Assembly (NCBI GenBank): GCA_051294375.1 | Contig: JBJCIZ010000250.1 | Span: 1 to 43,286 of the forward strand | Source: Paraspadella gotoi | Lineage: Eukaryota > Animalia > Chaetognatha | Direction: 5' to 3' | DNA: 43,286 nucleotides | In this document: one piece after another, positions 2,398 through 40,963 of the stretch | How positions within the stretch are numbered: position 1 is the first letter of the stretch | Layout: each line of letters begins with the position of its first letter | The notes under the pieces: generated by a model | Database searches by the model: none | Seen by the model: the letters and a program-made list of their open reading frames with translations, nothing else | What the model was told of the DNA's origin: nothing | Program-made: the position numbers and the translations under genes

Positions 2398-2665
2398 CTT
2401 AAGGGAGTGGTCTTTTCATACAATTGAAACATTCTTTTAAATAATATACCACTTCATTGATAGGGAAGCCAGGTACTCTGGGAGTGAATAAACGAGACTG
2501 TGAAAGAGTCTTGATTGAAAACTTGCAGGGACCTGCTATGTCATTATCTTGTAAGAGTGATGGAGGCCTTAAACCACGAAAGCCTGTCCAAAGTCAGGGG
2601 CAAGATAGCTTATTTATTAAATGAATGGATAATTTTTATATTAGTTGTACCAATTTCATAAAAGA
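2398..2665 (-). repeat. Copy of the ~325-bp dispersed repeat
   Basis: Reverse complement of 9161-9420. Confidence 0.85.
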
Positions 2666-9160: not shown

Positions 9161-9918
9161 ATGAAATTGGTACAACCAATATAAAAATTATCCATCATTT
9201 AATAAATAAGCCATCTTGCCCCTGACTTTGGACAGCTTTGGTGGTTTAAGGCCTCCATCATCTTACAAGATAATGACATAGCAGGTGCCCGCAAGCTTCA
9301 ATCAAGACTCTCTCACAGTCTCGTTTATTCACTCCCAGAGTACCTGGCTTCCCCTATCAATGAAGTGGAAAATATTTCAAAGAATGTTTCAATTGTATTG
9401 AAAAGACCACTCCCTTAAGTATTAGATCGGGAATACTTATTGTACTCCGGCCACTAGCAAAAAATACAAGGAGCTGAATTTTATGAAATTGGTACAACAG
9501 AATATAAAATTTATCCATTCATATTAATAAATAAGCTATCTTGCCCCTGACTTTGGACAGGCTTTGGTGGTTAAGGGCCTCCATCACTCTTACAAGATAA
9601 TGACATAGCAGGTCCCTGCAAGCTTTTCAATTCAAGACTCTATCACAGTCTCGTTTATTCACTCCCAGAGTACCTGGCTTCCCTATCAATGAAGTGGAAA
9701 ATATTTCAAAGAATTTTCAATTGATGAAAAACGACCACTCCCTTAAGTATTAGATCGGGGAATACTTATTGTACTCGCACTAGCATCAAAATACAAGGAG
9801 CTGAATTTTATAAATTGGTACAACCAATAAAAAAATTATCCATTCATATTAAAATAAGCTATCTTGCCCTGACTTTGACAGGCTTTGGTGGTTTAAGGCT
9901 CATCACTCTTACAAGATA
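9161..9918 (+). repeat. ~325-bp dispersed repeat, 2.3 tandem copies
   Basis: Units start at 9161, 9483, ~9810 (ATGAAATTGGTACAAC...). Confidence 0.85.
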
Positions 9919-15908: not shown

Positions 15909-16239
15909 AGGGAGGAAAGGAAAGGAGAGGAGGAAGGGTGGAGGGAGGAAGGAAAGGAAGAGAGGAAGGGGGTGGAGTGAGGAAAACAAGACAAGAAAAA
16001 TATAGGAAAAGGAGATTAAGAGTAGGAGATTATACGTGGAAAGAAAAAGAATTTAAAAGATTAACACAAAATAATGAAATAAAAAAATAACTGTAACAAC
16101 TAACTATAACAAAAGTAAAGTATACTAAAGTTAAAAAAAATGGTCGTTAGAATAGACTATAGTTATCCATTTTTATCAAGTTGAGAGAGACATGAATGGT
16201 AAAATGGCAATATAGAGTCAGGAAAATGGAAAATAAAAG

Positions 16240-16288
<49 letters not shown>

Positions 16289-16470
16289 AGAGAGAGAAGA
16301 GAGAGAGAGAGAGAAGAGGAGAGAGAGAGAGAGAGAGAGGTGATGGCCAAAGGGAATCCCTTTAGGGAAAAATAAAACTGAAAAAGAATTAAAGGAACGA
16401 GGGCGGATAAAAGGAGCCAGTCACGATATATTCCTTTTCATCGTGGAGAGAGAGAGAGAGAGAGAGAGAG

Positions 16471-16528
<58 letters not shown>

Positions 16529-17454
16529 TTTGAACCTTTTTCCTTGAGACTCAAATTGAAACAAATATTAGGGAAAATAAAAAATCTAATTGAATTCCAA
16601 AATTCGTTCTTACCTTTCGATTTAATCTCATGTCCTCAGTAAAAGTATACGAAAAATTAATTTATATTTTCAAACGATTGGTAATCATTAAAATGGAAAA
16701 TGGTTTGACTCTTTTCATTTATTGTACTCTTTCTAAAGAGTCCTAACTTAAAAAGGACCAAAACATAAAATTAGGATGATGTGCATAATGGACGAACGAT
16801 CAGTAGGATTACAACGGGGATTACAACTGCACTTGGCGATACAAATGAGGAAAATGTAAAATTATTAGCAGCTCAAATATCTTACAAGACAAGGCGAAAG
16901 CCAAAACGAGCATGAAGACGACAACGACGACGACGACGAAGACAACGACGACAAAGTCAATGACAGTTTCCACGTATTAATTTGATTGTTTACTTAATAG
17001 TTGATTTAATATGAGTTTAATCTATTGTCGCCAATGACGAAGACAAAAATGGCCGCTACCACGCCAACTTCGACGCCAACGATGACGGCAAAATGACGCC
17101 AACACGACGTCATAACCACCCAAAACACGACCACCTCCTTGCATTGCGTGTCCTCCGGACGAACTTGCCTTCGTGGGAAAACCGGCATCGAAAAATCTCC
17201 GAACCGGATTCTCAAGTTGCAGAAGAAGAAAGAAAAAAAAGGTTTTTGGCGGGAAATTGCAAAATATGGATGGACGAAAAAATCTGGAGAGATGCAGGAA
17301 AGGAGAAAGAGCGAGAGAGAGAGAGAGAGACGAGAGAGAGAGAGAGAGAGACGAGGGTAGGAATCCGGTGGGATAAAACAAAAAGAGATTGAACAGGAGG
17401 GCGGGCAAGGACTTCGTCATATCAGAAAAGCGGAGAAAGATGAACGGAAGAGGA

Positions 17455-17516
<62 letters not shown>

Positions 17517-19595
17517 TTTGTACCTTCGTCCACCAAAGCGTCTGACACAAAAGGCGAGAAAACATAATCAAGTCTGGCGCCAGTAATCCCTTCATCGGCC
17601 CCTTCTCAACCCCTGACTCCCCTTCCACCCCATGTCTCCCTCTTTCGCCCGGCCGCCTTGTGCACACTCTCTCCAGACCCCCTAACTCAACTGGCCCGGA
17701 TCGCGTTCGCTCCGCGGATGTCGCACACGTCAGCCTAAGGAGACATAAGGTAGATTTTTTCTTTCGTCGCCCGCCACTGAACGTTCGAAATCACCCCTTG
17801 TTCTCCTCGACGGCCGAACTTTATTTCGTTTCCGCCGTCTTATTCGTTGTCTGTTCTCTGTATTATTTACTTGTTTGTTTTACATTTTTAATGTGTCCTC
17901 TTTCTTTCTTGCATCTTTGTGTATTGTTTTGATTCTCGTTCGGTTATTTCTCAATCGCGTGCTACTGGTCTTTATTATTTTTGGAATCAATCACTTGGTT
18001 CCAATTCCGTGGCACATAGTCGTTTCGCTGATTTGCGTTTATCGTCGTTCGTTGTCAGTCTGTAAATGCTCGCTCCCGTCGATCTCAGACCTAAGGAAGG
18101 GCTCTGGTCGTGTCGTGTTGTCGTCCGTCGTACTATTCGTCGTCTCTTGTCTGTAGGCTCCACATCTCGGCTTGATCTATTGTCTCGGTTCCAAGCATTG
18201 TTTCCGCATCGACGCAAACTGTCCATCTGATATCAGTGACAGCCCTAACTTTCCCAACACACTAGTCGACCACGGTCTACCCTGTACCTGTCGTCCGTCT
18301 CGCAGCAAACCCCGTCATCCACCTTGTTGCTCACACCTTTTCCGTAGTTTATTTATGAGGTTGTTCGCCTTTGTATTTCTCCCTCTTCTCCGTCTTCTTT
18401 TAAGTGATATTCACTATCAGCACATTAATCGGTGCTCACCTGCTCAATCCAACAACTTCTGGTTCTTTTACTGTTTTAACGCTGGGGAGTATGAGAGCAT
18501 GTACATAAAATGGGTTCAACTTGTCTTTTGTCGTGCGTTGTCGTCGTCATTCCGCTAAACTGTTGTAGTCTCTAGCTGTCCGCGCCGATGCCAATCGCAT
18601 ACCGCGTCCTGGTCCATCCGTCGTTGTAGACTATATGTTTTGTAGTTAGCATGCGTCACGTCCTGTTGTATACGATTCGCCACTCCGTCCATCCGGAGTG
18701 TTAATTCGCTCGTTGTCGCTATTGTTGCGTGGCGCCAACCAGTCAGTGCCGAGTCGTTCGTCTGTATTACAGACTTCCGACCAGATCTTGCAGTCTGAAG
18801 TTTTCCCATTGTTCCGACTCCGTAACCGTCCTCAACTCCACCGGTCGGTTGTCGCGTCTTATACAAGTTACTTGTTCCTCGTTTCGAGTTGAGATCTGCG
18901 TAACCCGTTCGTCGTCCCTCGGATACTGGTTCGTACTGCTGCCGCCCGGTATATTCCTTCGCTTTTAATCGATAGTTCCATCCTGCAACAAAAAAAAAAA
19001 CATACCAAATTCCAATACTAATTTTACATGTTACACATATCATGAACTAACAATAACCTCCCAACAAAAAAGACATACAAACACAAGATTTAGAAAAAAA
19101 GAGTAATCCGTATTGCTAAAAGAATAAGATTTATCTCTCTCTTCACTCACGGAAATACACATCAATAATCTTCCCTTCTCTCTATCCTCCCTCTCTGCCT
19201 ACCTCTTCCTTCTTCTCATTCATCCTACCTTCCAATCTCTACTCTTTCTATGAGGGAGGAAAGGAAAGGAAGAGGAGGGAAGGGGGTGGAGTGAGGAAAA
19301 GAAAGACAAGAAAAATATAGGAAAAGGAGATTTTAAGAGTAGGAGATTATACGTGGAAAGAAAAAGAATTTAAAAAGATTAACACAAAATAATGAAATAA
19401 AAAAATAAACTGTAACAACTAAACTATAACAAGAAGTAAAGTATACTAAAGTTAAAAAAATGGTTCGTTAGAATAAGACTATAAGTTAATCCCATTTTAT
19501 CAAGNNNNNNNNNNNNNNNNNNNNNNNNNTATCAAGTTGAGAGAGACATGAATGGTAAAATGGCAATATAGAGTCAGGAAAATGGAAAATAAAAG

Positions 19596-19644
<49 letters not shown>

Positions 19645-19826
19645 AGAGAGAGAAGAGAGAGAGAGAGAGAAGAGGAGAGAGAGAGAGAGAGAGAGGTGAT
19701 GGCCAAAGGGAATCCCTTTAGGGAAAAATAAAACTGAAAAAGAATTAAAGGAACGAGGGCGGATAAAAGGAGCCAGTCACGATATATTCCTTTTCATCGT
19801 GGAGAGAGAGAGAGAGAGAGAGAGAG

Positions 19827-19884
<58 letters not shown>

Positions 19885-20810
19885 TTTGAACCTTTTTCCT
19901 TGAGACTCAAATTGAAACAAATATTAGGGAAAATAAAAAATCTAATTGAATTCCAAAATTCGTTCTTACCTTTCGATTTAATCTCATGTCCTCAGTAAAA
20001 GTATACGAAAAATTAATTTATATTTTCAAACGATTGGTAATCATTAAAATGGAAAATGGTTTGACTCTTTTCATTTATTGTACTCTTTCTAAAGAGTCCT
20101 AACTTAAAAAGGACCAAAACATAAAATTAGGATGATGTGCATAATGGACGAACGATCAGTAGGATTACAACGGGGATTACAACTGCACTTGGCGATACAA
20201 ATGAGGAAAATGTAAAATTATTAGCAGCTCAAATATCTTACAAGACAAGGCGAAAGCCAAAACGAGCATGAAGACGACAACGACGACGACGACGAAGACA
20301 ACGACGACAAAGTCAATGACAGTTTCCACGTATTAATTTGATTGTTTACTTAATAGTTGATTTAATATGAGTTTAATCTATTGTCGCCAATGACGAAGAC
20401 AAAAATGGCCGCTACCACGCCAACTTCGACGCCAACGATGACGGCAAAATGACGCCAACACGACGTCATAACCACCCAAAACACGACCACCTCCTTGCAT
20501 TGCGTGTCCTCCGGACGAACTTGCCTTCGTGGGAAAACCGGCATCGAAAAATCTCCGAACCGGATTCTCAAGTTGCAGAAGAAGAAAGAAAAAAAAGGTT
20601 TTTGGCGGGAAATTGCAAAATATGGATGGACGAAAAAATCTGGAGAGATGCAGGAAAGGAGAAAGAGCGAGAGAGAGAGAGAGAGACGAGAGAGAGAGAG
20701 AGAGAGACGAGGGTAGGAATCCGGTGGGATAAAACAAAAAGAGATTGAACAGGAGGGCGGGCAAGGACTTCGTCATATCAGAAAAGCGGAGAAAGATGAA
20801 CGGAAGAGGA

Positions 20811-20872
<62 letters not shown>

Positions 20873-23561
20873 TTTGTACCTTCGTCCACCAAAGCGTCTG
20901 ACACAAAAGGCGAGAAAACATAATCAAGTCTGGCGCCAGTAATCCCTTCATCGGCCCCTTCTCAACCCCTGACTCCCCTTCCACCCCATGTCTCCCTCTT
21001 TCGCCCGGCCGCCTTGTGCACACTCTCTCCAGACCCCCTAACTCAACTGGCCCGGATCGCGTTCGCTCCGCGGATGTCGCACACGTCAGCCTAAGGAGAC
21101 ATAAGGTAGATTTTTTCTTTCGTCGCCCGCCACTGAACGTTCGAAATCACCCCTTGTTCTCCTCGACGGCCGAACTTTATTTCGTTTCCGCCGTCTTATT
21201 CGTTGTCTGTTCTCTGTATTATTTACTTGTTTGTTTTACATTTTTAATGTGTCCTCTTTCTTTCTTGCATCTTTGTGTATTGTTTTGATTCTCGTTCGGT
21301 TATTTCTCAATCGCGTGCTACTGGTCTTTATTATTTTTGGAATCAATCACTTGGTTCCAATTCCGTGGCACATAGTCGTTTCGCTGATTTGCGTTTATCG
21401 TCGTTCGTTGTCAGTCTGTAAATGCTCGCTCCCGTCGATCTCAGACCTAAGGAAGGGCTCTGGTCGTGTCGTGTTGTCGTCCGTCGTACTATTCGTCGTC
21501 TCTTGTCTGTAGGCTCCACATCTCGGCTTGATCTATTGTCTCGGTTCCAAGCATTGTTTCCGCATCGACGCAAACTGTCCATCTGATATCAGTGACAGCC
21601 CTAACTTTCCCAACACACTAGTCGACCACGGTCTACCCTGTACCTGTCGTCCGTCTCGCAGCAAACCCCGTCATCCACCTTGTTGCTCACACCTTTTCCG
21701 TAGTTTATTTATGAGGTTGTTCGCCTTTGTATTTCTCCCTCTTCTCCGTCTTCTTTTAAGTGATATTCACTATCAGCACATTAATCGGTGCTCACCTGCT
21801 CAATCCAACAACTTCTGGTTCTTTTACTGTTTTAACGCTGGGGAGTATGAGAGCATGTACATAAAATGGGTTCAACTTGTCTTTTGTCGTGCGTTGTCGT
21901 CGTCATTCCGCTAAACTGTTGTAGTCTCTAGCTGTCCGCGCCGATGCCAATCGCATACCGCGTCCTGGTCCATCCGTCGTTGTAGACTATATGTTTTGTA
22001 GTTAGCATGCGTCACGTCCTGTTGTATACGATTCGCCACTCCGTCCATCCGGAGTGTTAATTCGCTCGTTGTCGCTATTGTTGCGTGGCGCCAACCAGTC
22101 AGTGCCGAGTCGTTCGTCTGTATTACAGACTTCCGACCAGATCTTGCAGTCTGAAGTTTTCCCATTGTTCCGACTCCGTAACCGTCCTCAACTCCACCGG
22201 TCGGTTGTCGCGTCTTATACAAGTTACTTGTTCCTCGTTTCGAGTTGAGATCTGCGTAACCCGTTCGTCGTCCCTCGGATACTGGTTCGTACTGCTGCCG
22301 CCCGGTATATTCCTTCGCTTTTAATCGATAGTTCCATCCTGCAACAAAAAAAAAAACATACCAAATTCCAATACTAATTTTACATGTTACACATATCATG
22401 AACTAACAATAACCTCCCAACAAAAAAGACATACAAACACAAGATTTAGAAAAAAAGAGTAATCCGTATTGCTAAAAGAATAAGATTTATCTCTCTCTTC
22501 ACTCACGGAAATACACATCAATAATCTTCCCTTCTCTCTATCCTCCCTCTCTGCCTACCTCTTCCTTCTTCTCATTCATCCTACCTTCCAATCTCTACTC
22601 TTTCTATGAGAGAGAGAGAGAGAGAGAGATTTGAACCTTTTTCCTTTGAGACCTCAAATTGAAACAAATATTAGGAAAATAAAAAATCTAATTGAATTCC
22701 AAATTCCGTTCTTACCTTTTCGATTTAATCTCATGTCCTCAGTAAAAGTATACGAAAATAACTTTATATTTTCAAACGATTGGTAATCATTAAAATGGAA
22801 AATGGTTTGACTCTTTTCATTTATTGTACTCTTTCTAAACAGTCCTAACTTAAAAAGGACCAAAACATAAAATTAGGATGATGTGCATAATGACGAACGA
22901 TCAGTAGGATTACAACGGGGATTACAACTGCACTGGCGATACAAATGAGGAAAATGTAAAATGTATTAGCAGCTCAAATATCTTACAAGACAAGGCGAAA
23001 GCCAAAACGAGCATGAAGACGACAACGACGACGACGACGAAGACAACGACGACAAAGTCAATGACAGTTTCCACGTATTTAATTTGATTGTTTACTTAAT
23101 AGTTGATTTAAATATGAGTTTTAATCTATTGTCGCCAATGACGAAGACAAAAATGGCCGCTACCACGCCAACTTCGACGCCAACGATGACGGCAAAATGA
23201 CGCCAACAACGACGTCAATAACCACGCCAAAACACGACCACCTCCTTGCATTGCGTGTCCTCCGGACGAAACTTGCCCTTCGTGGGAAAACCGCATCGAA
23301 AAATCTCCGAACTCGGATTCTCAAAGTTGCAGAAGAAGAAAAAAAAAGGTTTTTGGCGGGAAATTGCAAAATATGGATGGACGAAAAAATCTGGAGAGAT
23401 GCAGGAAAGGAGAAAGAGCGAGAGAGAGAGAGAGAGACGAGAGAGAGAGAGAGAGAGACGAGGGTAGGAATCCGGTGGGATAAAACAAAAAGAGATTGAA
23501 CAGGAGGGCGGGCAAGGACTTCGTCATATCAGAAAAGCGGAGAAAGATGAACGGAAGAGGA

Positions 23562-23623
<62 letters not shown>

Positions 23624-23820
23624 TTTGTACCTTCGTCCACCAAAGCGTCTGACACAAAAGGCCGAGAAAACATAAATCAAGTCTGCGCCAGTAATCCCTT
23701 CATCGCCCCTTCTCAACCCCTGACTCCCCTTCTCCACCCCATGTCTCCCTCTTTCGCCGCCTCCTTCCAGACCCCTTAACTCACTGGCGTCGCGTTCGCT
23801 TCCGCGTTCGACGTCGCTAA
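15909..23820 (+). repeat. Tandem segmental copies (offset 3356 bp) plus a third partial copy; probable assembly artefact
   Basis: 16174-19251 equals 19530-22607 (identical ORF sets at +3356); 22611-23820 repeats ~16500-17760; 25-N joins at 15772-15796 and 19505-19529. Confidence 0.85.
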
Positions 23821-25236
23821 GGAGATTTTTCTTTCGTCGCCGCCAGAGTTCGAATCCCCTTTGTCGCCGCGGATGTCGCTGTTGTTGTCGTCGTTGTCGT
23901 TGTTGTCGTCGTCGTTGTTGTCGTCGTCGTTGTTGTCGTCGTCGTCATTGTCGTCGTTGTCGTTGTCGTCGTCATCGTCGTTGCCTTCGTAGTTTTTATA
24001 GTTGTTGTTAATTTCTTCCTTCTCGTCTTTGTAACTATCAGCATTAATGTATCAACATCGGTTCACCTTTTAACGCGAGTAGAGCTGCCTAAATGGTTGT
24101 CGTTGTCGTCGTNNNNNNNNNNNNNNNNNNNNNNNNNNNNNNNNNNNNNNNNNNNNNNNNNNNNNNNNNNNNNNNNNNNNNNNNNNNNNNNNNNNNNNNN
24201 NNNNNNNNNNNNNNNNNNNNNNNNNNNNNNNNNNNNNNNNNNNNNNNNNNNNNNNNNNNNNNNNNNNNNNNNNNNNNNNNNNNNNNNNNNNNNNNNNNNN
24301 NNNNNNNNNNNNNNNNNNNNNNNNNNNNNNNNNNNNNNNNNNNNNNNNNNNNNNNNNNNNNNNNNNNNNNNTCGTCGTCGTCGTCGTCGTCGTAACTTTT
24401 AATCGTATTCATCCTGCAAAAAACTAAATTCAATACTATTTACATGTTACAATGAATACAATAACCCAACAAAAAAGAAAATAAAAAAGATTAAAAAAAT
24501 TTGTAAAGAAATAAATTATTTCAACGGAATAAAAAATCTCTCTCTNNNNNNNNNNNNNNNNNNNNNNNNNNNNNNNNNNNNNNNNNNNNNNNNNNNNNNN
24601 NNNNNNNNNNNNNNNNNNNNNNNNNNNNNNNNNNNNNNNNNNNNNNNNNNNNNNNNNNNNNNNNNNNNNNNNNNNNNNNNNNNNNNNNNNNNNNNNNNNN
24701 NNNNNNNNNNNNNNNNNNNNNNNNNNNNNNNNNNNNNNNNNNNNNNNNNNNNNNNNNNNNNNNNNNNNNNNNNNNNNNNNNNNNNNNNNNNNNNNNNNNN
24801 NNNNNNNNNNNNNNNNNNNNNNNNNNNNNNNNNNNNNNNNNNNNNNNNNNNNNNNNNNNNNNNNNNNNNNNNNNNNNNNNNNNNNNNNNNNNNNNNNNNN
24901 NNNNNNNNNNNNNNNNNNNNNNNNNNNNNNNNNNNTGTTAACAAAGACAAAAACAAGGTTTTAATTGTATTGATAAAAAATATAGAGCTATAGAGCTAAA
25001 GATGTAGTTAAATTAAAGATATGTATAGTACAAGTGAAGGCCTAAAAAAAGTAAGTGCCGAGTTCACTTTTTGTGAATGAGCAACGACCGTGATTGTTAT
25101 CCATTTCTATCAGTGATCTGTGATCTGTGATCCAGCCTGAAGAAATTAATAATTGTATAATTTATAGACCTATTATTTTTCGGCCGATAAAGAAATAAAA
25201 ATTTCGTCGAATACTGCTAATCCCTACCTAATCTAA

Positions 25237-25515
25237 TTTTTAGTTGCGCCGCGAGTACTCTGTAAGTCACTTTTCGGTCGGTCTGTCGGTCCGTCGGTAT
25301 GTCTGTTCATCGGTCTGTCCCACTTACGTGAAAAATGCCCATAACTTGCACATAGTTGTTTGCTCGATGCTCATTTGTTAAGAAGGGAAAATTTTTCAAA
25401 TTTATAATCCTGAAATAATAAAAAAACAAAATACGGAATTCCGATGTAGTGCGTCGGCTAAGAAAGTTATTGTAGTCATGTAGTCATGTCATGTCACGTC
25501 ATGTCATGTATTTAC
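25237..25515 (+). mobile_element. HINE/DINE-1-like interspersed repeat
   Basis: TTTTTAGTTGCG...ACTCTGTAAGTCACTTTTCGGTCGGTCTGTCGGTCC; ends in (CATGT)n; noisy copy at ~31313-31585. Confidence 0.5.
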
Positions 25516-27306
25516 ACTCTCCCTCCCTTTGTCCCTTCCCTCTCCTAACTAATCTTTCTCCAAATTCCTACTCTCCCTCCCTTTCTAAACTCTCCTTTTA
25601 CTCCTTTACCTATCTTTTTCATCCCTCTCTATCTTCTCTCTCTTTCTTCTCTTTCTTTACTTTTCTTTTTTCTCTCCTTCTCTTCTTAACCTTCTCGCCG
25701 ACGGAGAATCAAGAGGCTTTGCTCGCCAACGTCTTTACGTCTCTCTCTNNNNNNNNNNNNNNNNNNNNNNNNNNNNNNNNNNNNNNNNNNNNNNNNNNNN
25801 NNNNNNNNNNNNNNNNNNNNNNNNNNNNNNNNNNNNNNNNNNNNNNNNNNNNNNNNNNNNNNNNNNNNNNNNNNNNNNNNNNNNNNNNNNNNNNNNNNNN
25901 NNNNNNNNNNNNNNNNNNNNNNNNNNNNNNNNNNNNNNNNNNNNNNNNNNNNNNNNNNNNNNNNNTCTCTCTCTCTCTCTCCTTCCCTTGCAGCGAGAGT
26001 CGCCAAACGTGAATATCACAAGGAAGACTTCATTGCGTTTCTCCTTGGTTACCAGGCTCCAATGCTTGATTACCTAAATCGATTGCTTGGTCGCCGCCAG
26101 CAAATCACAAGAAACGCAGGTTGCCGAAATTGGTCGGAGAGTCTTTGTTTCCGGAGCCGGAAAATTGGAATTAGTCCGGAGAAAATGCTACTTTTTCGAC
26201 GCGACATTAAATCGTGAATGACTTAATCTAAATCAACGATACGTGATTAGTGATTACCTGCCATTATAAAATATATTATAACCTAACTGATAACAATATC
26301 AGATTAATTAAGATCTTTTTTAAAAAAAAAAACTCTTATAATAATACACGACAACTTTACTAAGTTACCTTCAAAAATGTTAAAACATGTGTAAAACATA
26401 AGGCTTCATGTCATTAACCAATTTTACTATAAGTTTTTTTTTTCTGATTTGACATTGCTCTTTTGCTTTGCCTTCAAAGCAAAGCCTTTGACAAAAAGTT
26501 GTATTCATGCCGGCTGAGTTCAGATTCATTTTCGCTCGTGTATTCAGCGGAGATCAGCAATAATAGATTCACTTAATTAACAAAGGCGTCGCCGCTGGGC
26601 TGAGTGGGTCGTCCATTGACGAAGAGAACGAAGTAGATTCGCGTCGGAGGAAAGAGGATAGAGAGAAAGAAGAAAATAATGGAGGAAAAGGAAAGGAAAG
26701 GAATGAGAAAAATAATGGAGAGGATGGTGAAGGGAGAAAGAAAAAAAGGGAAGAAGTAAAGAGAATAGAATGGAGGAAAGGAAACGAAAGAGAAAAATAA
26801 TGGAGAGGCTGGTGAAGGGAGGAAGAAAAAAAGGAAAAGAAAGAGAAAAAGAATGGAGAGGTTGGTGAAGGGAGGAAGAAAAATGGAAAGGAAAAAAAGA
26901 TAATAGAATGGAGGAAAGGAAAGAAAATAGAAAAAAGAATGGAGAGGACTGATAAAGGAAGAAAAGATATAGAAACAAGATCGGTTCATCCAATGTCCAA
27001 CTAAAAAGAAAGAAAAGAAATCTCCGCGAGTGAGATTTTCGAGCGAAGCAGCTTCGGACGAAGGAGGAAAAAGAAGAGAAGAGAGAGAAAGGAAAGGATT
27101 AGGAGGAGAAGGTAATAAAGAGTCGAGGGAGGATAAGAGTAAACAGTAATTAAGAGGAATGAAGGGAAGGAAGAAATGAAGGTATTAAAGAGAAGACCGG
27201 CGAGATAAGGCAAGGGAGGTGTTAAGAATCGGACATCTTACGGGGGAAAAGATGACATTCTGGTGGTCCTATCACCACAGATGATTAAAGCTGTTTCTTT
27301 CGCTGC

Positions 27307-27537
27307 GCCTCAGTGGCTCAGTGGACTAATGCACCATCCCAATGTGCGTCCCTGGTTCGAGCCCTGAGGTTGTCATGTAGAAAGTGGGATGGACCGGGTA
27401 ACCCGCCTGTAGGCATGGGCCTACTGCCGGATCCAAAGCTCTGTACTACACGAACATGCTGTCTCGCTGACGCCACGATGTGACACCGCTGCGGGTGTGG
27501 CGCCCTGTAAAACCAGCCTCTTCAACATAGCTTTTTT
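27307..27537 (+). mobile_element. tRNA-derived SINE-like / Pol III transcription unit carrying a twister ribozyme
   Basis: A box TGGCTCAGTGG 27314-27324; B box GGTTCGAGCC 27354-27363; acceptor-stem-like GCCTCAG (27307-13) / CTGAGGT (27364-70); GC-rich structured body; T6 run 27532-27537. Confidence 0.7.
27376..27450 (+). ncRNA. Twister self-cleaving ribozyme, circularly permuted (type P5)
   Basis: P5 TGTAG/CTACA; P2 GTGG/CC(-)C; conserved GA (27388-89); T1 TGGA (27390-93) / TCCA (27432-35); UAA cleavage motif 27399-401; T2 GC (27405-06) / GC (27438-39); P3 GTAGGC/GCCTAC; P4 CGGA/TCTG closing 8-nt loop TCCAAAGC. Confidence 0.75.
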
Positions 27538-27849
27538 ATAATTTGAAATATCAACGAAGGAAGTAGGCCTAGTTTATTGATGAGAAATTGAAGGAGTTTT
27601 ATTAATACAAATAAACGAAGAGGTAATGAGAATTTAAGGCGATTATGAAGAATAAACAGACAGTAAACAAATACAGTAGAAAAAGAAGAAGAAACGGGCT
27701 AGTTAAAAAATGTAACTAAATCACAAAAAGGAATGATATTTAAATACTTTCCTACTGATAACATGAGTCAATAATCTTATATGACGATTATTGGTCGAAA
27801 ATATTCGAGGTCATACGAGAAAATATACGAGACATTGCAATTAAAGGTT

Positions 27850-27940
27850 GCCATTGCAAGTTGGCATTGCGAGTTGGCATTGCAAGTTGGCATTGCAAGT
27901 TCGTATTGCAAGTTGGCATTGCAAGTTGGCATTGCAAGTT
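27850..27940. repeat. 13-bp tandem repeat (TTGCAAGTTGGCA)n
   Basis: Direct inspection. Confidence 0.9.
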
Positions 27941-28391
27941 AATCGTGATAGTTTGATCAACACATTTTACTGCATTTTCTTCTGGCAACTAAACACCATC
28001 AAGATAANNNNNNNNNNNNNNNNNNNNNNNNNNNNNNNNNNNNNNNNNNNNNNNNNNNNNNNNNNNNNNNNNNNNNNNNNNNNNNNNNNNNNNNNNNNNN
28101 NNNNNNNNNNNNNNNNNNNNNNNNNNNNNNNNNNNNNNNNNNNNNNNNNNNNNNNNNNNNNNNNNNNNNNNNNNNNNNNNNNNNNNNNNNNNNNNNNNNN
28201 NNNNNNNNNNNNNNNNNNNNNNNNNNNNNNNNNNNNNNNNNNNNNNNNNNNNNNNNNNNNNNNNNNNNNNNNNNNNNNNNNNNNNNNNNNNNNNNNNNNN
28301 NNNNNNNNNNNNNNNNNNNNNNNNNNNNNNNNNNNNNNNNNNNNNNNNNNNNNNNNNNNNNNNNNNNNNNNNNNNNNNNNNNNNNNNNNNN

Positions 28392-28423
<32 letters not shown>

Positions 28424-28939
28424 AAACTTGCAATAGATTTTCTCGCAATAAAAACCATTCACAATAGCTTTTCAGGAATTTATTTCGCTCGCCATACATT
28501 GATTATTCCCTTGACTAACGAAATTTAACCTAGATTTAAACTAACATCTTCATAAAAATAAAATACAATATATCAATATAATCAATATATATATATAGAT
28601 ATTATTATCTTGTAAGTGAGATAGAGGCCCTAAACCTCCTTAGCTTATTTAATAAATGAATGGATTATTATTACATTGGTTGGAACAATTTCTCAAACAT
28701 TCTTAGTTTTCAATAAAAGAATGAAAAAAAACATAAAAAATTACATCCAATCATGAAAGTAATTTTTGGAAAGATCGTTTGACCTTTTGACCTTCATGAA
28801 TATCACTTCAAGTCCGTCTCTTTCGGCTCTTGGCAAAAATTCCATTTTTTTGGCGAATGGATTCAATTTTTTCTCCTCATTTCCGCCACAATTTTTCATT
28901 TGAGACGTTGGACGGGCCTTATTTTCCCAGAACGCTCCG

Positions 28940-29410
28940 GAGATAGGCGGACCGAGGAAGGAGCAGGGCGTTAACCTGGAGGCCCATTTTCAAAATATAA
29001 CATTGTGTACGAGATAGGCGGACCGTGGAAGGAGCAGGGCGTTAACCTGGAGGCCCTTTTTCAAAANNNNNNNNNNNNNNNNNNNNNNNNNNNNNNNNNN
29101 NNNNNNNNNNNNNNNNNNNNNNNNNNNNNNNNNNNNNNNNNNNNNNNNNNNNNNNNNNNNNNNNNNNNNNNNNNNNNNNNNNNNNNNNNNNNNNNNNNNN
29201 NNNNNNNNNNNNNNNNNNNNNNNNNNNNNNNNNNNNNNNNNNNNNNNNNNNNNNNNNNNNNNNNNNNNNNNNNNNNNNNNNNNNNNNNNNNNNNNNNNNN
29301 NNNNNNNNNNNNNNNNNNNNNNNNNNNNNNNNNNNNNNNNNNNNNNNNNNNNNNNNNNNNNNNNNNNNNNNNGTTAACCTGGAGGCCCTTTTTCAAAATA
29401 TAACATTGTG
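28940..29410. repeat. 71-bp tandem repeat (spans an N gap; about 6 noisy units visible at 35013-35425)
   Basis: GAGATAGGCGGACCG(A/T)GGAAGGAGCAGGGCGTTAACCTGGAGGCCC...CATTGTGTAC at 28940 and 29011. Confidence 0.85.
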
Positions 29411-29686
29411 CCTCCGTTTCATCTTAAATTCGGAAATTAGTTTATTTTTAGGTTTCAAGATTAGGTTGAATTTGAAGGTAATGGTTAAGGATTAAGTTAA
29501 TGATTAGGTTCGAGTTAGGGTCAAGTTAGGGTTAGAGTGATTGAGTAGTTCAGTGATTAAATAGTTAAGTGACCGGTGATTAGCGTGAGAGAACTTAGGA
29601 ATATGTTTGGATACCAAGATTTATCTACAATTTTTAATAATCGTAGGAAAACCTTTATCTCNNNNNNNNNNNNNNNNNNNNNNNNN

Positions 29687-29957
29687 AAGAGAGAGATCAC
29701 GAAGTCATACAGGCCAAAAAGAACCTTTGCATTGCGTGTCGGAGAAATGCCTTGGAAACGATCGAAAATTCGAACTGGAGATTCAAGTTGAGAAGAAAAA
29801 AAAAGGTTTTTGGGAAATTGCAAATATGGATGAGTAATTGGAGAGAGAGCGAGAGAGAGAGGAGAGAGAGGAGAGAGAGAAGAGAGGGTAGGAATCGGTG
29901 GGATACAAAAGGAGATTGACGGAGGGCAGATTCGGTCTATAGAAAGGTTGAGACATG

Positions 29958-30042
<85 letters not shown>

Positions 30043-30937
30043 GTATTTGGTACCTTCGTCAAAGGTGCTGACAAAAGGCCGAGAACATAATCAGTTGCGG
30101 TAGTAATCTTATGCCTTTCACCCTGATCCTTTAATGTTTCCTTGTGCGCTCCCTGTCCGACGGTTAACTACTGGGTGTCGGTCGTTCGGTTCGATGGGGT
30201 GGCTAAGAGATTTTTGTTGTGCCGAAGAGTTGAGTCCTTGTCGGCGGATGTTCGTGTTGTTGTCGTCGTTGTGTTGTTGTCGTCGTCGTTGTTGTCGTGT
30301 GTTGTTGTCGTCGTCGCTTGTCGTCGTGTCGTTGTGTGTATCGCGTTGCTTCGAGTTTATAGTTTGTTGTTAATCTCTTCTCGTTTGTATATAGATTAAT
30401 GTATAACATGGTTACTTTAACCGCGGTAGAGTGCTATGGTTGTGTGTGTCGTGTGTCGTCTGTGTTGTGTCTGTCGCCATGGTGTTGTTGTGTCGTTCGT
30501 TGTGTCGTCATCGTTGTGTTGTGTGTGTGTGTTGTCGTACGTCTATCGTCGTCGTGTTGTCGTCTGTCGTCGTCGTCGTCGTCGTAAGTTTTAATCGTAT
30601 TATCTGCAAAATAAATTTATACTATTTACATTTACAATGATACAATACACAAAAAGAAATAAAAAGCTTAAAATAAAATTTGTAAAGAAATAATATTTAA
30701 ACGGAATAAAAAATCTCTCTGCTCTTCTCTCTTCTCTGTCTCTTCTCTCTTCCTTCTTCTTCTCTCTTTCTCTTCTCATTTAGTGTTATTTATTTCGAGG
30801 ATCATTCTATATTTCGTTATGTCGTGTGTGCGTCGTCGTTCGTGTCTCGGCTATTGAACATTGTATTTTTGGTCTCGATGGTCGCGATATTTTTTTTTTT
30901 TTTCGGGGTGGATGGTGGTTCGATTGAGAGGAGAAGA

Positions 30938-30980
<43 letters not shown>

Positions 30981-33900
30981 GAGAGGAGAGAGAGTAGGTT
31001 GTTTTCGGCTGAAGTGATCACGAAGTGTTGTTAAAAAGGACAAAAGGTTTAAATTGTGTTTGATAAATATAGAGCTATAGAGCTAATGATGTAGTTATAA
31101 TTTAAGAGATATGTTATTGTAGCAGGTGAAGGCTAAAATAAGTAAGTGAGATTCCTTTTTGTGAATGAGCATCGACGTGATTGTTTATCATTTTTATCAG
31201 TGATATGTGGTTGTGATCCCAGCTGAATTAATAATTGTATAATTTTGACTATTTTTTTCGGCGATAAAGAAATAAAATTTTGTCGAATACTGCTATCCTA
31301 CCTAATGTAATTTTATAGTTTGCGCCGCGAGTATCTGTAGTCACTGTTCGGTCGGTTGTCGGTCGTCGGTATGTCTGTTCATCGGGATTGTCTTAGTGAA
31401 AAATGCCAATAAGTTGCACATATTGTTTGCTCGATGTCATTTGTTAGAGGGAAATTTTTCAAATTTATAAGTCATGAATTATAAAAAACAAGATAACGGA
31501 GATGTCCGATGTACGTGGTCGGTAAAGGAAAGGGTTATTGTGTAGTTGCATGTAGTATGTTGTCACGTCTATGTCATGTATTTACACTCCTCCTTTGCTT
31601 CCTCTCCTAACTATTCTTTTCCGAAATCTATCTCCTTCGGTAAACTCTTCCTTTTATCTCCTTTAGAACCTATTTATTTCACCTTCTCTCTTTTCTGTTT
31701 TTTTTTTACTTTTTTTTTTTTCCTTTTCTCTTTAGATAGGCTTTGTTCGCTGAGCAGGAATCAAGAGGCTTTTGCTTTTGCATCTGTCTTTTACGTTCTC
31801 TGCTCTCTCTTCTACTCGTCTGTCTCTTTCTTCTTCCTCTTATCTCTTCTCTCTTTGTGTGTTGTTGTGTCTCTGGTGTTTCGTCTCTTGTTCTGTCGGT
31901 TCCTGTTCTCATTTAGTTCCTGTTCCTGGAAACCTCGCGTATGGTGTGATCATGTTACTGAGGTTGCCTGTTGTGGTTTGCAGAGGCCGGGAGGATAAGT
32001 CTTCAATTCATATTTGGTGCTCTCTCTTCTCTCTCTTGCTTGACGTTTTGCTCTTCTCTCTCTTCTCTCTCGTGTGCCCTTTGCAGCTGAGGAGTTTGCT
32101 AAATTCGTGAATTATCATACAAGGAAGAGCTTTCATTGTTGGTTTCTCCTTTGGTTCAGGCCAATGTGCTTTGTTACTAAATGATTGCTGTGGTCGCCGA
32201 GCAATGATCACAAGAAACAGGTGTTTGTTGAATTGGTTGGTTAGAGTCGTTTTGTTTCCGGGATGTGTCGGTATAGAATTTGGAATTAGTGGCTGGTAGA
32301 ATTTGTGGTGCTACTTGTCGATCTGCGAGTAGTTAAAGTGTGAATTGAGTTAATTATCATCGATACTTTGTATTAGTGGATTTTACGTCTGCATTGATAT
32401 ATAATTATTATGAGCGCTAATTCTGATTAAATTAGTAGATTATTAAGGATCTTTTTTAAAATAAAAAAACTCTTGATAAATGATACACGACAACTTTAAG
32501 TTACCTCAAATATGTTAGAAACATGTGTAAACATAAGGCTTTCATTGTCTTATTGAAGTCGAATGTTACTATGAAGTTTTTTTTTCTGATTTGGATCATC
32601 TTTTTGCTTTGCCTTTCAAGCAGAGCCTTTGATCGAAAAGATTGTATTCAGCCGTTTTGAAGTTGAGATTCATTTTTTTCGCTCTCATGTGTATTGTTTT
32701 TGCTGTGAGATGGCTAATGATAGATTCAGCTTAATGTAAAAGGGTGCCGTGGGCTGAGTGGGTGTTATTGACGAAGAGAAGAAGTACGATTCGCGTTGGA
32801 GGAAAGAGGATAGAAGAAAGAGTAAAATTAGATGGAGAAAAGGAAAGGAAGGAATGAGAAGAAATTTGGAGAGGATGGTGAAGTTAAGTTATAAGTAAAA
32901 AGGGAAGAGTGAAAGAGATGATGAGGAAGAAGAATAGAAAAAAATGGAGAGGGGCTGGTGAAGGGAGGAGAAAAAAAGAAAGAAGAAAAAAGAATGGAGA
33001 GGTTGTGAAGGGGAATATGAATTAATGAAAGAAAAATAAGATAATAGAATGTTGTGAAGGAGAAGAAAATTGAAAAGAAGAATGGAGAGGATGGAATAAT
33101 GGAGAAAGATATAGAGACAAGATCGGTTCATCAATGTCCAACTAAAATATGTAAAGGAAAGAAATTCGCGAGTGAGATTTTTGGAGCTCGAAGCAGCTTG
33201 GCGAGAGGAGAAATAAGGAAGAGATAGGAGAGAGAGGGAAGGATTGGAGGAGAAGTGTATGAAAGAGTCGAGGTGAGGATATGGAGTAAACAGTAATTTT
33301 AAGATGTGAATGAAGGGAAGGAAGAAAGGAGGTATTAAAGAGAAGACCGGATATTAAGGCAAGGGAGGTGTTGAGAGGGGGGTCGGATCATCTTTACGGG
33401 GAAAGATGACATTCTGGTGTGTCCTATCACGACATGATGATTTAAAGTGTTTCTTTTGGTGCGTTCTAGTGGTCTCAGTGACTAATGCACGATCTCCATG
33501 GTGCGTCGTGGTTGTAGCCTGAGTTTATGTAGAAAGTGGGATGGACGGTACACGCTGTAGGCAATGGGCACTGCGGATACAAAGCTTCTGTACTACACGA
33601 AATGCTGTCTCGTGTACGGACGGATGTGACACCGCTGCGGGTGTGGCGACTGGAAAAACAGACTCTTAACATAGCTTTTATTATAAATTTTGAAATGATC
33701 AGAAGGAAGTAGACTAGTTTAGTGATGAGAATTGAAGGAGTTTTTTATGACAAATAAACGAAGAGTAATGAGATTTAAGGCGATTCTGAAGAATTAACAG
33801 ACAGTAAACAAGTAACTTGTAGAAAAGAGAAGAAGACGGGCTAGTTAAAATGGTAACTAAATCACAAAAGGAATGAATATTTAAATACTGTCTACTGATA

Positions 33901-35660
33901 ACATGATCAATAATGTTATTATTGACGATTTTATTGGTCGAAATATTCGAGGTCATACGAGAAAATATACGAGAGCTATTGCAATTATAATGGTTGCTTG
34001 CAGTTGGCATTGTCGAGTTGGCATTGCAATTGCATTGTGCATTTTCTTTGTATTGGCTAATTGGCTTGCATGTTGGCATTGAAGTTTGCGTGATTATGTT
34101 TGCACTCACACATTTTACTGCATTTTTTTCTGGTATTTATTTATCTTTATTATTTTTATAATTTGTAGTCTAAAGAAGTGTGGCCCATTTTCTCTTCTTC
34201 TCTCTTCTTTCTCTCTCTCTCTCTCTTCTCTCTCTCTGCTTCTGTCTCTCTTCTCTTTCTTTCTCTCTCAATTCTTTGCCAAGAGGAGTTCTATTTTTAG
34301 TACCCCCAAATCGCTTCGATACTTATTTTATGAGGAACTCTCATCTTTTTATGGCGAGGAAACAGTTTTCGCCAGATTCGCGTAGATAGAATTAAATGAG
34401 CGAGAGATCGAGAGAGAAGAGATGAGAGAGAGAGAGAGAAGCGAGAGGAGATGAGAGAGAGAGAGAGAGAGAAAAAGAGTAGAGAGAGATGAGGAGAGAG
34501 AGAAGAAGAAATCAATAGATTTCCTCTATAAAAAACCATTTCGACAATTTTTTATTGCTTTGCAGGATTTTATTTCGTGTATCTGCATACATCTGATTAT
34601 CTTGACTATCAAATTTAACTAGATTTAAACTAACATTATAAAATAAAATACAATATTAATATATTAATATATATTATAGATATTATTATCTGTAAGTGAG
34701 ATAGAGGCCTAAACTCCCTTAGTTATTTAATAATGAATGGATTATTATTACATTTGGGTGGAGAACAATTTCTCAAACATTTCTTAGTTTTCAATAAAAG
34801 GAATGAAAAAAAAAGTAAAAAATTACATCCATATGAAAGTATTTTTGGAGATTGTATTGACCTTTTGACCTTCATGAATATCACTTCAAGTCAGTCTCTT
34901 TCGGCCTTGGACAAAAATTGCCTTTTTTGGGAATGGATTATTTTTTCACTCATTGTCGCAATTATTTTCATAATTGAGCGTTGGACGGGCTTATTTTCCC
35001 AGAACGCTTCCGGAGATAGGCGGACCGGGAAGAGCAAGGCAGTTAACTGGAGGCCGATTTTCAAAATATAACTTGTGTACGAAATAGGCGGACGTGGAAG
35101 GAAGAGGGCGTTAACGCTGGAGGCCTTTTTCAAATATACATTGTGTACGTAGATAGGGAACCGTGGAAAGGAGCAGGTGTTAAACCTGGAGCCCTTTTTC
35201 AAAATATAACATTGTGTAGGAGATAGGCGGCCGAGGAAGGAGCGGCGTTTACAACTGTGGGAGGCCATTTTTCAATATAACATTGTGTACAGAGATGAGG
35301 GGACCGAGGAGAGGAGCAGGGCGTTAACACTGGAGGCTCTTTTTCAAAATATAACATGTGTAGAGTAGGCGGACGAGGAAAGAGAGGGCGTTAACTGTGA
35401 GGCGCTTTTCAAAAATATAAATTGGTCTCAGTTTCATCTTAAATTCGGAAGATTAGTTTATTTTTTAGGTTTCAAGATTAGGTTGAATTGAAGGTAATGG
35501 TTAAGGATATAGTTAATTGAGTAAGGGTTGAGGTTAGGTGCCAAGTTAGGGTTAGAGTATTGAGTAGTTTAGTTGATTATATTAAGTGACCGGTATTAGG
35601 TGGAGAATACTAGGATATGTTTGGATAAACCAAGATTTATCTACATTTTTAATAATGTAG
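29687..35660 (+). repeat. Noisy duplicate of ~23230-29661; probable raw long-read insertion
   Basis: Colinear with dense indels; starts right after the 25-N join at 29662-29686. Confidence 0.85.
33463..33679 (+). mobile_element. Error-laden second copy of the tRNA-SINE/twister unit (probably the same locus from a raw long read)
   Basis: Colinear with 27307-27537 inside the noisy duplicated block 29687-35660; twister part ~33528-33597. Confidence 0.55.
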
Positions 35661-37351
35661 GAAAACTTATATTCAAGACCTATTACAATGAAAAATACTT
35701 TTAGAAATTGTTCCGTTTTCTTAGTCGATTGCTTATCAGCAGATCCGTCTTAACTCACTTTTTATACTCACTTTTTTTCGGCCGTCGGTCGCCGCTCAAT
35801 TATTGTCGGGCAAACACTTATATCAATGTCAAACATCGAATTATGATAAGTTATCAAAAAAAATGATGTCCGTCGCCTCTGTCTGTCCGTCCGGTCGTCG
35901 TCCGTCCGTCCCCTTAATAGCAAATAACACCAATTACGGGGGTTTTTGGATTGATGGATTTAAATGTGTATAATTTTTTGTGTGTGATAGGTAATTGTGT
36001 GTGATGTGTCTGGATATGAGTTTTCGATTGTGATATGCTGTCCATGTTGTTAATTGGAGTTGTGAAGATGGAAATTAACATAATTAATGATATATTTTTC
36101 GTATTGGAAATGCCATTTGCCTCTATGATTGGAATTGGCTGATTGTACTCTTTTGGCAATTTTATGTGGTAGGAATTGTTGTTATTGTACAGGAAACAAG
36201 TTTTCGATGGAATAGTTGATGGAAATGAGTTTAAAGGAAAAAACAAACCAACATGTTTTATTACTATGATTATGCTCTTTTGCTTTTATATTAAATGTGT
36301 ATGCTGCAGGATTATTAATAAATACATAATTTAATCAGTTAATTAATCAATTAGTAATAATTAATAATAATTAATTAATTAGTCATTCAATCCGTCATCC
36401 GTCATCTTAGCAAAAAGCTCCAATAAAACTCGTGATTGGCTGGTTGGATATGGAATTTATAATTTTATGTGTGGGTCGGGAGTGTGTGAATAAATTGCTG
36501 AATCCGTGTGAGTGGAAATTAGTTTAAGATGGAAAACATAAGTGAATTTATAAAATCTTTTTATTTATTTACCAATAAATACTTTCCATATCATATTGGA
36601 TGGATAGATTGAGTTGAATTTGGTGTGTGGGTAGGAAAACGTATGAGCAAGCTTGAATATAAAAGTTTCAGTGGAAGTACCAGTGGAAAATGAAGTTTAA
36701 AATAAAAAATATGAGTCACATTTACTTGAAATCTTTTTATTTTATTTTACCCATGATAGTGGGATGAATTTTGTGGCCGGTAGAGTGAGTGAGAAACTAG
36801 TATATAAATTATTGACGGAAATGCAAGTTGAAAAAAATTAAATGCAAAAGTTGATAAAATGAATGCAAGTAAAAAATCTTAAAAGCCATAAGGATGTACT
36901 ATCTGCATAAAAAGAGAGAGAGAGAGAGAGTGAAGAGAGAGTGGAAGAGAGAGAGAGAAGAGTGAGAGAGAAAAAGAGAGAAGAGTGAGAGAGAGAGAGA
37001 GAGAAGGAAGACTAAATAAAAAATCTTAAAAAAGACTCAAAGATCGAGCCAGAGCCACTAATATGAAAAATTATGAAAAAAAGGAAAAACGAATGAACAT
37101 GCGATAACGAATTGTTTGATGTACTTAGTATTGATTGAGGTTATATAATTGATGATGTAATAGTAATTTATTGATGTTATGGAATTGATTATTGACTATC
37201 GATGAAATGAATTTTGATGGCGATGAAGTCGCATTCACTGCTGTGATGATAGTCTTCAGTGAATGGAATGATGTCTTTCATTGATGCGATGATTGTCTTC
37301 ATTGATTGGATGATAGTCAATAAAAACAATTGCCGTGTTATGAGTGAAAGA

Positions 37352-39133: not shown

Positions 39134-39249
39134 ACCCGAGTAGTTCTCGGGCTGAAATAAATAAAGAAACACTCTTTGAGTGTTCCTCTCCACGGAAATC
39201 TTTAGTAAAAGGCGAAAGATTTGTGCGCTCTGAAGAGAAACCAGAGTTG
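39134..39249 (-). ncRNA. RNU5: U5 spliceosomal snRNA (variant Sm site)
   Basis: Minus strand reads ACTCTGGTTTCTCTTCAGAGCGCACAAATCTTTCGCCTTTTACTAAAGATTTCCGTGGAGAGGAACACTC...; invariant loop 1 GCCUUUUAC (plus 39205-39213); 3' hairpin GCCCGAG-AACTA-CTCGGGT; length ~116 nt. Confidence 0.93.
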
Positions 39250-40085: not shown

Positions 40086-40548
40086 CTCAGGCGAGATCAA
40101 CTTCCGGCCAACCGACGATTGCGCTTAAGGCGACGCAGGACGCTTCTGCAGCGGCGGTTCTGCCGCCGCAGCCGCAGCCGGCCGCTGCACGTTCCCGCCG
40201 CCGCACTTCTTAAAGGCGTCGCCATCTTGGCGAAAGTCGTGACCTCTGGGGGGAAAAAAAATGAATGAAGTTCGTCGTCATGGAAACGTCGGCGTTAGTT
40301 TGAATTCAATTCAAGAAAATTACATTTTTATTTCGTGTTAACATTAGACAAGCGTTTTTTTTTTTGGTGATAGCGAGGTGGTTACCGCTGTGAAAGAATA
40401 TGCCCGCTCACATTTCTTAGAATTTCAGTTCTGACATTAACATCTGTTTCGCTAAACTTAAGGAAATCGCAGAGTCCCGGGGACGAGGAAATGCACAGTC
40501 TAGAAAATTGTTTCCGTCACCAATGAGGTTCGTCCATCGCTAACATTG

Positions 40549-40830
40549 TCAGCTCCTTGTATTTTGATGCTGTAGCGTGGAGTACAATATAGAATTNNNN
40601 NNNNNNACAATTGAAACATACTTTGAAATATAAAACCACTTCATCGATCGGGATTCGGGGAAGCCAGGTATTCTGGGAGTACATAAACGAAACTGTGAGA
40701 GAGTCTTGATTGAAAGCTTGCAGGGATCTGTTATGCAATTATCTTGTAAGAGTGATGGAGGCCCTCAACCACCAAAGCCTGTCCCAAAGTCAGGAGAATA
40801 ATTCATAATATATAACGAATGGATAATTTT
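40549..40830 (-). repeat. Copy of the ~325-bp dispersed repeat (spans a 10-N gap)
   Basis: Same orientation and sequence as 2398-2665, plus the AGCTCCTTGTATTTT segment. Confidence 0.8.
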
Positions 40831-40963
40831 TTTCGACCGACGAAGTCTCTCCATCTCTATCTCTTTTTCTTCTCACCAAATCGTCGCGGCTCGAGGGATG
40901 AGTGAGAAGAGAGAGAGAGAAAGAGAGAGAGAAGAGACGAGAGAGAGAGAGAGAGAGAGAGAC

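Follow-up and report, generated by a model that had tools for sequence, protein, structure and literature searches.

Does the genome of the chaetognath Paraspadella gotoi encode a self-cleaving RNA at 27373..27453 of contig JBJCIZ010000250.1 (assembly GCA_051294375.1), and if so, what kind of repeat carries it and how would it cut? An earlier note on this DNA had read the motif as a circularly permuted, type-P5 twister ribozyme; here we analyse the whole stretch of 43,286 nucleotides (the window), together with contigs of seven public sequencing runs aligned to the region. Checked base by base, all the bases named in that description are where it places them, and T2, P3 (6 bp), P4 (4 bp, one G.U) and P5 as drawn there (5 bp, 27376-80/27446-50) all close; the cut position U27399/A27400 also stands as a predicted site, placed by homology to the twister consensus (Table 1). 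The core of the description was thus right, but it had omitted three features. P2 is imperfect (2 bp, the bulged U27385 and one C-G pair, with a 5' strand of 3 nt), the pair closing L4 is A-U in the window copy, and P1 is absent: since only 6 nt separate GAUGG from the cut-site strand UAA (27399-401) in this copy, P1 cannot form inside one copy. Moreover, P4 comprises 4 bp including one G.U pair in the window copy (27428-31/27440-43) and 5 bp in the read majority, and the folding energy of the monomer is ordinary (z -0.67).

Table 1. Positions of the twister-like motifs and of the repeats that carry them in the window.
Feature	Position	Strand	Basis or remark
Type-P5 twister-like motif, whole	27373..27453	+	base-by-base check and descriptor match
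P5 stem	27373-80/27446-53	+	8 bp
P2 stem	27384,27386-87/27402-04, bulge 27385	+	
General-base G27388 and following A27389	27388-89	+	
T1 pseudoknot	27390-93/27432-35	+	4 Watson-Crick pairs
T2 pseudoknot	27405-06/27438-39	+	2 Watson-Crick pairs, G-C
P3 stem	27409-14/27419-24	+	6 bp
P4 stem	27427-31/27440-44	+	loop L4 27432-39
Predicted cleavage site U27399/A27400	27399..27400	+	homology to twister consensus
Six-base P1 remnant, central CCGG palindrome	27393..27398	+	self-duplex -8.1 kcal/mol
266-bp high-copy repeat, read as solo LTR of a TRIM	27259..27524	+	TC start, CA end
Left target-site duplication ACAT, 4 bp	27255..27258	+	empty-site contig
Right target-site duplication ACAT	27525..27528	+	empty-site contig
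Small hairpin upstream of tRNA-like part	27290..27306	+	this copy mismatched at 27304, read majority paired
tRNA-derived segment, not a functional tRNA; likely Pol III internal promoter	27305..27369	+	regex match
Box A; box B	27314-27324; 27354-27363 (within 27305..27369)	+	regex; boxes as described for Helenus
7-bp hairpin, 3' part of repeat	27468..27485	+	two private mismatches, read majority paired
Indel-rich second copy of the 266-bp repeat	33437..33706	+	81% identity, inside 6-kb duplicate
Sister twister-P5-like motif, no P3, predicted cut U2570/A2571	2544..2608	+	Rfam and own model
Perfect 6-nt palindrome, core GGCC, sister linker	2564-2569	+	
Tandem array, period 327, 2.4 copies, one twister-like motif per unit	9161..9918	-	single-base indels between copies
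Partial sister copies	2397-2663 and 40548-40831	+	
Sister-family fragment	28641-28692		

A match to the Rfam covariance models, by which the earlier note had proposed to check the motif, was not obtained: the Rfam twister models did not match the window copy at the gathering score, nor at E<=10 on 27200-27650. The same models matched 3 of 20 control phage loci (canonical L4, gathering score), and hence miss many phage twisters. Our own covariance model, trained on 36 phage P5 twisters, scored the window copy weakly (9.6 bits, E 1.1), and three other window sites outscored it (E 0.011, 0.012 and 0.097 vs 1.1). A descriptor of the P5 strand order gave the 27373..27453 site as its single match in the window, with 5 matches per 200 Mb of Markov sequence (about 2e-3 per window, both strands), a null rate that is optimistic because the descriptor was drafted with the motif known; a post hoc descriptor with a 6-nt linker gave two window matches, against none in 585 Mb of null sequence. 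Among the other candidates, a fifth match of our own model (40125-40190, E 2.7) was rejected as GC-rich triplets, the minus-strand Rfam matches to CPEB3 and PyrR205 near the motif were rejected at E ~0.2, and no Rfam hammerhead match appeared in the searches made here.

The strongest support for twister identity comes from a sister family in the same window, a 327-bp tandem repeat, which combines compensatory changes with an Rfam Twister-P5 match below the cut-off (26.2 bits on 2556-2598 against a gathering score of 37.6; E 0.0013 in a 321-base search); our own model gave its 2544..2608 motif E 0.012. Where the 266-bp repeat that contains the first motif has G-C in T2 and C-G as its first P2 pair, the sister has A-U in both places, and both partners are altered in two pairs of P4 and three of P5; T1 and the P2 bulge are common to both families, and the sister L4 is closed by G-C. 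The type-P5 strand order and the twister assignment of the earlier note are borne out by this comparison. At the level of sequence the second family confirms the twister fold, which we regard as almost certainly real. Its copies start and end at different points, its ribozyme-like motifs lie in tandem and bound a unit, and self-pairing in the 327-nt unit is unremarkable (z -0.94); neither A/B boxes nor a clear primer site were found in it.

The setting of the first motif, namely an LTR-like repeat with a tRNA-type promoter, a palindromic linker and a second family nearby, had been passed over in the earlier note. One empty-site contig (run X1, depth 161) passes straight from 27254 to 27525, where four letters can be assigned to either side; hence the 266-bp insert 27259-27524 is flanked by ACAT. 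The sequence alone would also permit a duplication of 2 or 3 bp, and contigs ending at 27524 or starting at 27259 favour 4 bp. Contigs begin at 27259, and loose ends gather behind 27524-27526, with 17 contigs in X1 and 11 in X2 behind 27525 and 2 contigs in X9 behind 27520. In X1 and X2 the first 18 letters behind the repeat match a tRNA-Trp primer site (Kojima Fig. S2) at 17 of 18 positions, with low agreement among the loose ends (0.57 and 0.49); the 2 contigs of X9 carry only the start of this match, which brings the runs to three of seven, and no such match occurs among the rows listed for X5, X7 and X8. One X5 contig leads from the right end of the repeat through 188 other letters to its left end, a join that a tandem repeat fits equally; the empty site and this join each come from one contig in one of the seven runs. 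The 3' terminus CA fits an LTR, and the 5' terminus is TC, not TG; TG...CA termini are described as typical of LTR elements. A Troyka-type element was rejected, its termini being given as CG...CG. ARAGORN called no tRNA in the repeat, and no T4 run lies inside the element; a T6 run follows at 27532-27537, 3' of the right ACAT. No Pfam match was obtained in the 20 of 104 window ORFs scanned, and a helper element was not found there. Taken together, we consider the 266-bp repeat probably an LTR element, and the window copy is best read as a slightly decayed solo LTR.

Summed depth reaches 1.6-6e5 over the repeat body (X1, X2) vs 65-176 on the far 3' flank, which shows that the family is very large; summed depth is no copy number. 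The window copy differs from the read majority by six substitutions and one single-base gap, and at each of the six substitutions a mismatch or wobble in the window copy is a Watson-Crick pair in the majority (two in P4, one in P5 and three in two flanking hairpins, the hairpins having been drawn after the differences were seen). The picture of an ordinary single-copy ribozyme given by the earlier note does not hold for this copy: P1 is missing from the monomer, and three private changes weaken P4 and P5. No variant rows fall at 27388-96 or 27399-404 at thresholds of 3% and 1% in the seven runs. The further ribozyme variants above 1% in X1 lie in the P3 loop (3.3%) and at one position keeping a U.G pair (1.6%), and X8 shows variants of 1-2% in P2, T1, T2 and the palindromic linker; the family is too uniform for covariation within it.

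The family varies at its 5' end (27259-27283): several variants among the loose ends, possibly subfamilies, retain a hairpin-like frame but differ in its middle part, and another variant of the same stretch appears in run X10, a biofilm metagenome (depth 2-4). The repeat copy at 33437-33706 was rejected as an independent family member, as its flanks are duplicated too and it is probably an assembly duplicate. It belongs to a six-kb duplicate (~23200-29700 vs 29700-35700) whose halves are 73-85% identical and differ by many indels, as is typical when gaps are filled with an uncorrected long read; the window as a whole is microsatellite-rich and gap-filled. Elsewhere it contains a U5 spliceosomal RNA gene (39134-39249, minus strand, Rfam 94 bits) and a near-identical 3.3-kb tandem duplication (15941-19258, 19252-22614 and 22608-23864; 98%), every unit of which has a B-box-like motif on its minus strand. 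Degenerate, telomere-like repeats of 13 bp and a clean minisatellite, also of 13 bp, lie at 3959-4277 and 27847-27940.

How far the motif departs from natural twisters was judged against twisters gathered from viral contigs by pattern, which yielded 56 distinct P5-order matches, a few of them chance matches. A P2 strand of 3 nt occurs in 44 of these 56 and a P4 of at least 5 bp in 50. The UCCA:UGGA form of T1, presented in the earlier note as a compensatory change, is indeed a two-sided change vs the consensus, but it is an ordinary natural variant rather than a special one: complete twisters carry it at 22 of 120 loci (14 distinct) in one phage scan and at 13 of 31 in a second, and the T1 pair varies on both sides in 11 of 36 aligned phage sequences, a set chosen to contain the variant. 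The L4-closing pair is G-C in all 14 distinct phage twisters with the same L4, found without fixing that pair, and a narrow pattern with the A-U pair had no phage match. The A-U closing pair and the six-base linker are the unusual features; the P2 strand, P4 length and T1 variant are normal. Natural twisters have been reported to tolerate most defects in P1, P2 and P4, less so at the L4-closing position of P4, where defects lower cleavage (PMC11662667). A pattern shaped on the 266-bp family found no viral locus; of the 24 metagenome loci it did find, none showed twister stems on inspection or any similarity in blastn, and the Rfam twister models matched none of the 12 of these loci searched and none of 8 further loci, and the 266-bp repeat itself had no phage match. 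The viral loci L177-L264 hold many phage type-P5 twisters, several per contig (four on IMGVR_UViG_3300037524_001274), 13 of them with UCCA:UGGA, and L034, L038, L040 and L044 show a canonical twister P4/L4 with no obvious UAA/P2 layout in the flanks shown, possibly an unusual permutation.

Both chaetognath families possess a 6-nt linker in place of P1, and in both its core is self-complementary, CCGG in one and GGCC in the other, all four positions being different; the chance of this is 1/256, or 1/16 if only G/C is allowed. Two copies would be able to swap their 5' and 3' halves, whereby the linkers pair and P1 arises in its normal position for each core. In a nested model, with pseudoknots omitted, the swapped dimer comes out about 10 and 13 kcal/mol ahead of a pair of monomers, the shared P1 giving 7.2 and 9.4. 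The A.G mismatch that would flank the shared P1 in the 266-bp family is also present at the P1 base of 10 of the 56 phage matches. There is precedent in another ribozyme class: axolotl hammerheads whose stem has a single pair and whose tetraloop is palindromic have been described to cleave much better as dimers, and the same preference was reported for the hammerheads of Penelope elements (PMC6765202). A dimer is no strict requirement, given that twister activity can survive the loss of P1 (PMC5408937). The 266-bp family is probably catalytically active, and it is somewhat more likely than not that its cleavage depends on dimers. The best explanation, which we hold to be slightly better than an even bet, is that a P5 twister-like core sits in the solo LTR of a Helenus-type TRIM with a tRNA promoter and that the LTR pair would cut as a domain-swapped dimer. 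More tentatively, and with rather less confidence, we propose that these may be natural dimer-acting animal twisters in which P1 has become a palindrome, so that cutting would require two copies to pair, and which would drive two circle-forming element families in one genome, an LTR retrozyme with a Pol III promoter and an LTR-less tandem repeat. In the open full-text literature covered, we found neither a dimeric twister nor a ribozyme in a Helenus-type element.

The closest competitor keeps the LTR-like repeat but has its twister work as a monomer: each copy would be active by itself with no P1, the six bases being a simple loop and the palindrome incidental or just helpful, and a unit-length RNA and its circle could arise all the same. 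P1 is conserved but reported to be dispensable (PMC5408937, PMC11662667), and the 8-bp P5 holds both halves together within one copy. On the other hand, this reading has to accommodate two families that keep different palindromes of equal length, whereas the P1 inserts of the 56 phage P5-order matches measure 12-34 nt (the pattern admitted 8 nt or more) and no viral locus among the phage P5 twisters has a 6-nt linker; nor, among the matches listed, does any of 120 prokaryotic loci combine all pairings with a palindrome and a six-base linker. We consider it unlikely.

It is quite unlikely, in our view, that the twister fold, though real, is now an idle passenger, acquired from the tandem family or an RTE-type 5' end by a TRIM whose replication relies on ordinary strand transfer between its terminal repeats. 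The non-standard A-U closing pair and the bulged P2 would suit such a passenger, as would P3 and P4 flanks that resemble the Schistosoma RTE twister (PMC8501958). Moreover, the published Helenus consensus sequences contain no twister-like motif among the matches listed, so that Helenus elements seem to spread without one; the text searched has its lines wrapped at 70 letters. An idle fold sits poorly with a read majority that is better paired than the window copy at 6 of 6 differences, with catalytic positions that have no listed variants and with the compensatory changes between the families.

Very unlikely, too, is a tRNA-headed SINE or a satellite unit of ~455 bp cut from multimeric transcripts by its ribozyme, as in the SM-alpha repeats of schistosomes, which provide the precedent (PMC6765202). 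The tRNA-type head, a 5' terminus that is not TG and the end-to-start contig, which fits a tandem repeat too, would agree with this; against it stand fixed ends flanked by a 4-bp duplication, a 3' terminus of CA with the tRNA-Trp primer-site match immediately after it, 45 conserved bases upstream of the tRNA-like part and the lack of an A-rich or simple-repeat tail in the element. Finally, a chance resemblance to a twister in a GC-rich repeat, for which the missing Rfam match, weak model score and ordinary folding energy might speak, is hardly credible given the low null rates of both descriptors and a sister family with an Rfam match and compensatory changes.

If the LTR pair acts as a domain-swapped dimer, the following cycle can be proposed. 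Pol III, with its usual start position and box spacing, would start near 27305 in the 5' LTR and read through both LTR ribozymes. The two ribozymes in one transcript would pair, share one P1 helix and both cleave, releasing an RNA of ~455 nt without a terminal repeat. From one contig we infer that tandem ribozymes bound such a unit-length RNA in the 266-bp family. A host RtcB-type ligase would close it into a circle, and RtcB-type ligation has been described as efficient for retrozyme monomers in vitro. tRNA-Trp would then prime reverse transcription around the circle by a Gypsy-type helper; the primer sites of animal Helenus elements point to Gypsy helpers (PMC10886601). The products, namely solo LTRs, full units or multimers, would integrate with 4-bp duplications, in line with the circle-templated model proposed for plant LTR retrozymes (PMC4918200). 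The 327-bp tandem family would be an LTR-less version using the same kind of ribozyme, and the window copy itself could cut only with a partner transcript, or weakly alone.

In its strand order, its GA with T1, its UAA, T2 and 8-nt L4, the motif agrees with the type-P5 twister (Rfam RF02684), and the 3-nt P2 strand, 5-bp P4 and T1 variant all occur in phage; it is unlike the phage twisters in its short palindromic P1 (6 nt against 12-34 nt), bulged P2, A-U closing pair and long P3. As an element, the repeat resembles Helenus/TRIMp3 (Kojima 2024, PMC10886601) in having tRNA-derived A and B boxes in an LTR-sized repeat, solo LTRs, a 4-bp duplication as in animal Helenus, a tRNA-Trp primer site as in some wasp families and a total length within range, about 720 bp. 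It differs in that no ribozyme is described for Helenus, a term search of that paper giving no mention of twister, and in that the tRNA-like part is 5' here but near the 3' end in most of the Helenus LTRs examined and the 5' terminus is TC rather than TG; the arthropod families given there are from wasps only (PMC10886601). Plant LTR retrozymes (Cervera et al. 2016, PMC4918200) likewise have a ribozyme per LTR, a 4-bp duplication, a primer site and solo LTRs; in contrast to them, the 266-bp family has a twister and not a type III hammerhead, an animal host, a tRNA-Trp and not a tRNA-Met primer, tRNA-type promoter boxes and a palindromic stem remnant. Animal non-LTR retrozymes use a different ribozyme class, dimeric type I hammerheads (PMC7229834; for PLE hammerheads, PMC6765202), and are reported without the LTR features that the 266-bp family has (PMC7229834).

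The likeness to the twisters of Schistosoma Perere-3 (RTE), mentioned in the earlier note, extends to an animal retroelement, similar P3/P4 flanks (Table 1 of PMC8501958) and a weak P1, but not to the biology. Perere-3 twisters are described as type P1, located at the 5' end of the element with the duplication abutting the cut site (PMC8501958), whereas the motif studied here is type P5 and internal, 140 bp from the left end, with no pile-up of copy ends at the cut among the loose ends listed. A Perere-3-like insertion at the cut site was rejected accordingly, no loose ends falling at 27399/27400 among the rows listed (24 of 24+144 and 16 of 16+80).

Since unpublished truncated twisters at RTE 5' ends have been mentioned (PMC7761336) and CHiTA lists crustacean twister candidates, among which the present families may figure, a twister in an animal genome is not new in itself. 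The novelty lies in the repeat around the motif and in its palindromic P1, and not in the pseudoknot change, which is ordinary. In animals, where twisters are widespread, the sole role described for them in the literature covered is the trimming of RTE retrotransposon 5' ends; LTR retrozymes are described there only in plants. If our reading is true, the palindromic-stem dimer device of hammerheads would have arisen independently in a second ribozyme class, and a Pol III promoter flanked in nature by two twisters would parallel the engineered circular-RNA cassettes; a cut that depends on two copies could also serve as a tool. The reading further suggests why Rfam misses such motifs, many more of which may hide in repeat libraries. 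For the elements themselves it would mean that a Pol III-transcribed TRIM could replicate even though its RNA lacks a terminal repeat, and that ribozyme-driven circular RNA intermediates reach the LTR elements of animals.
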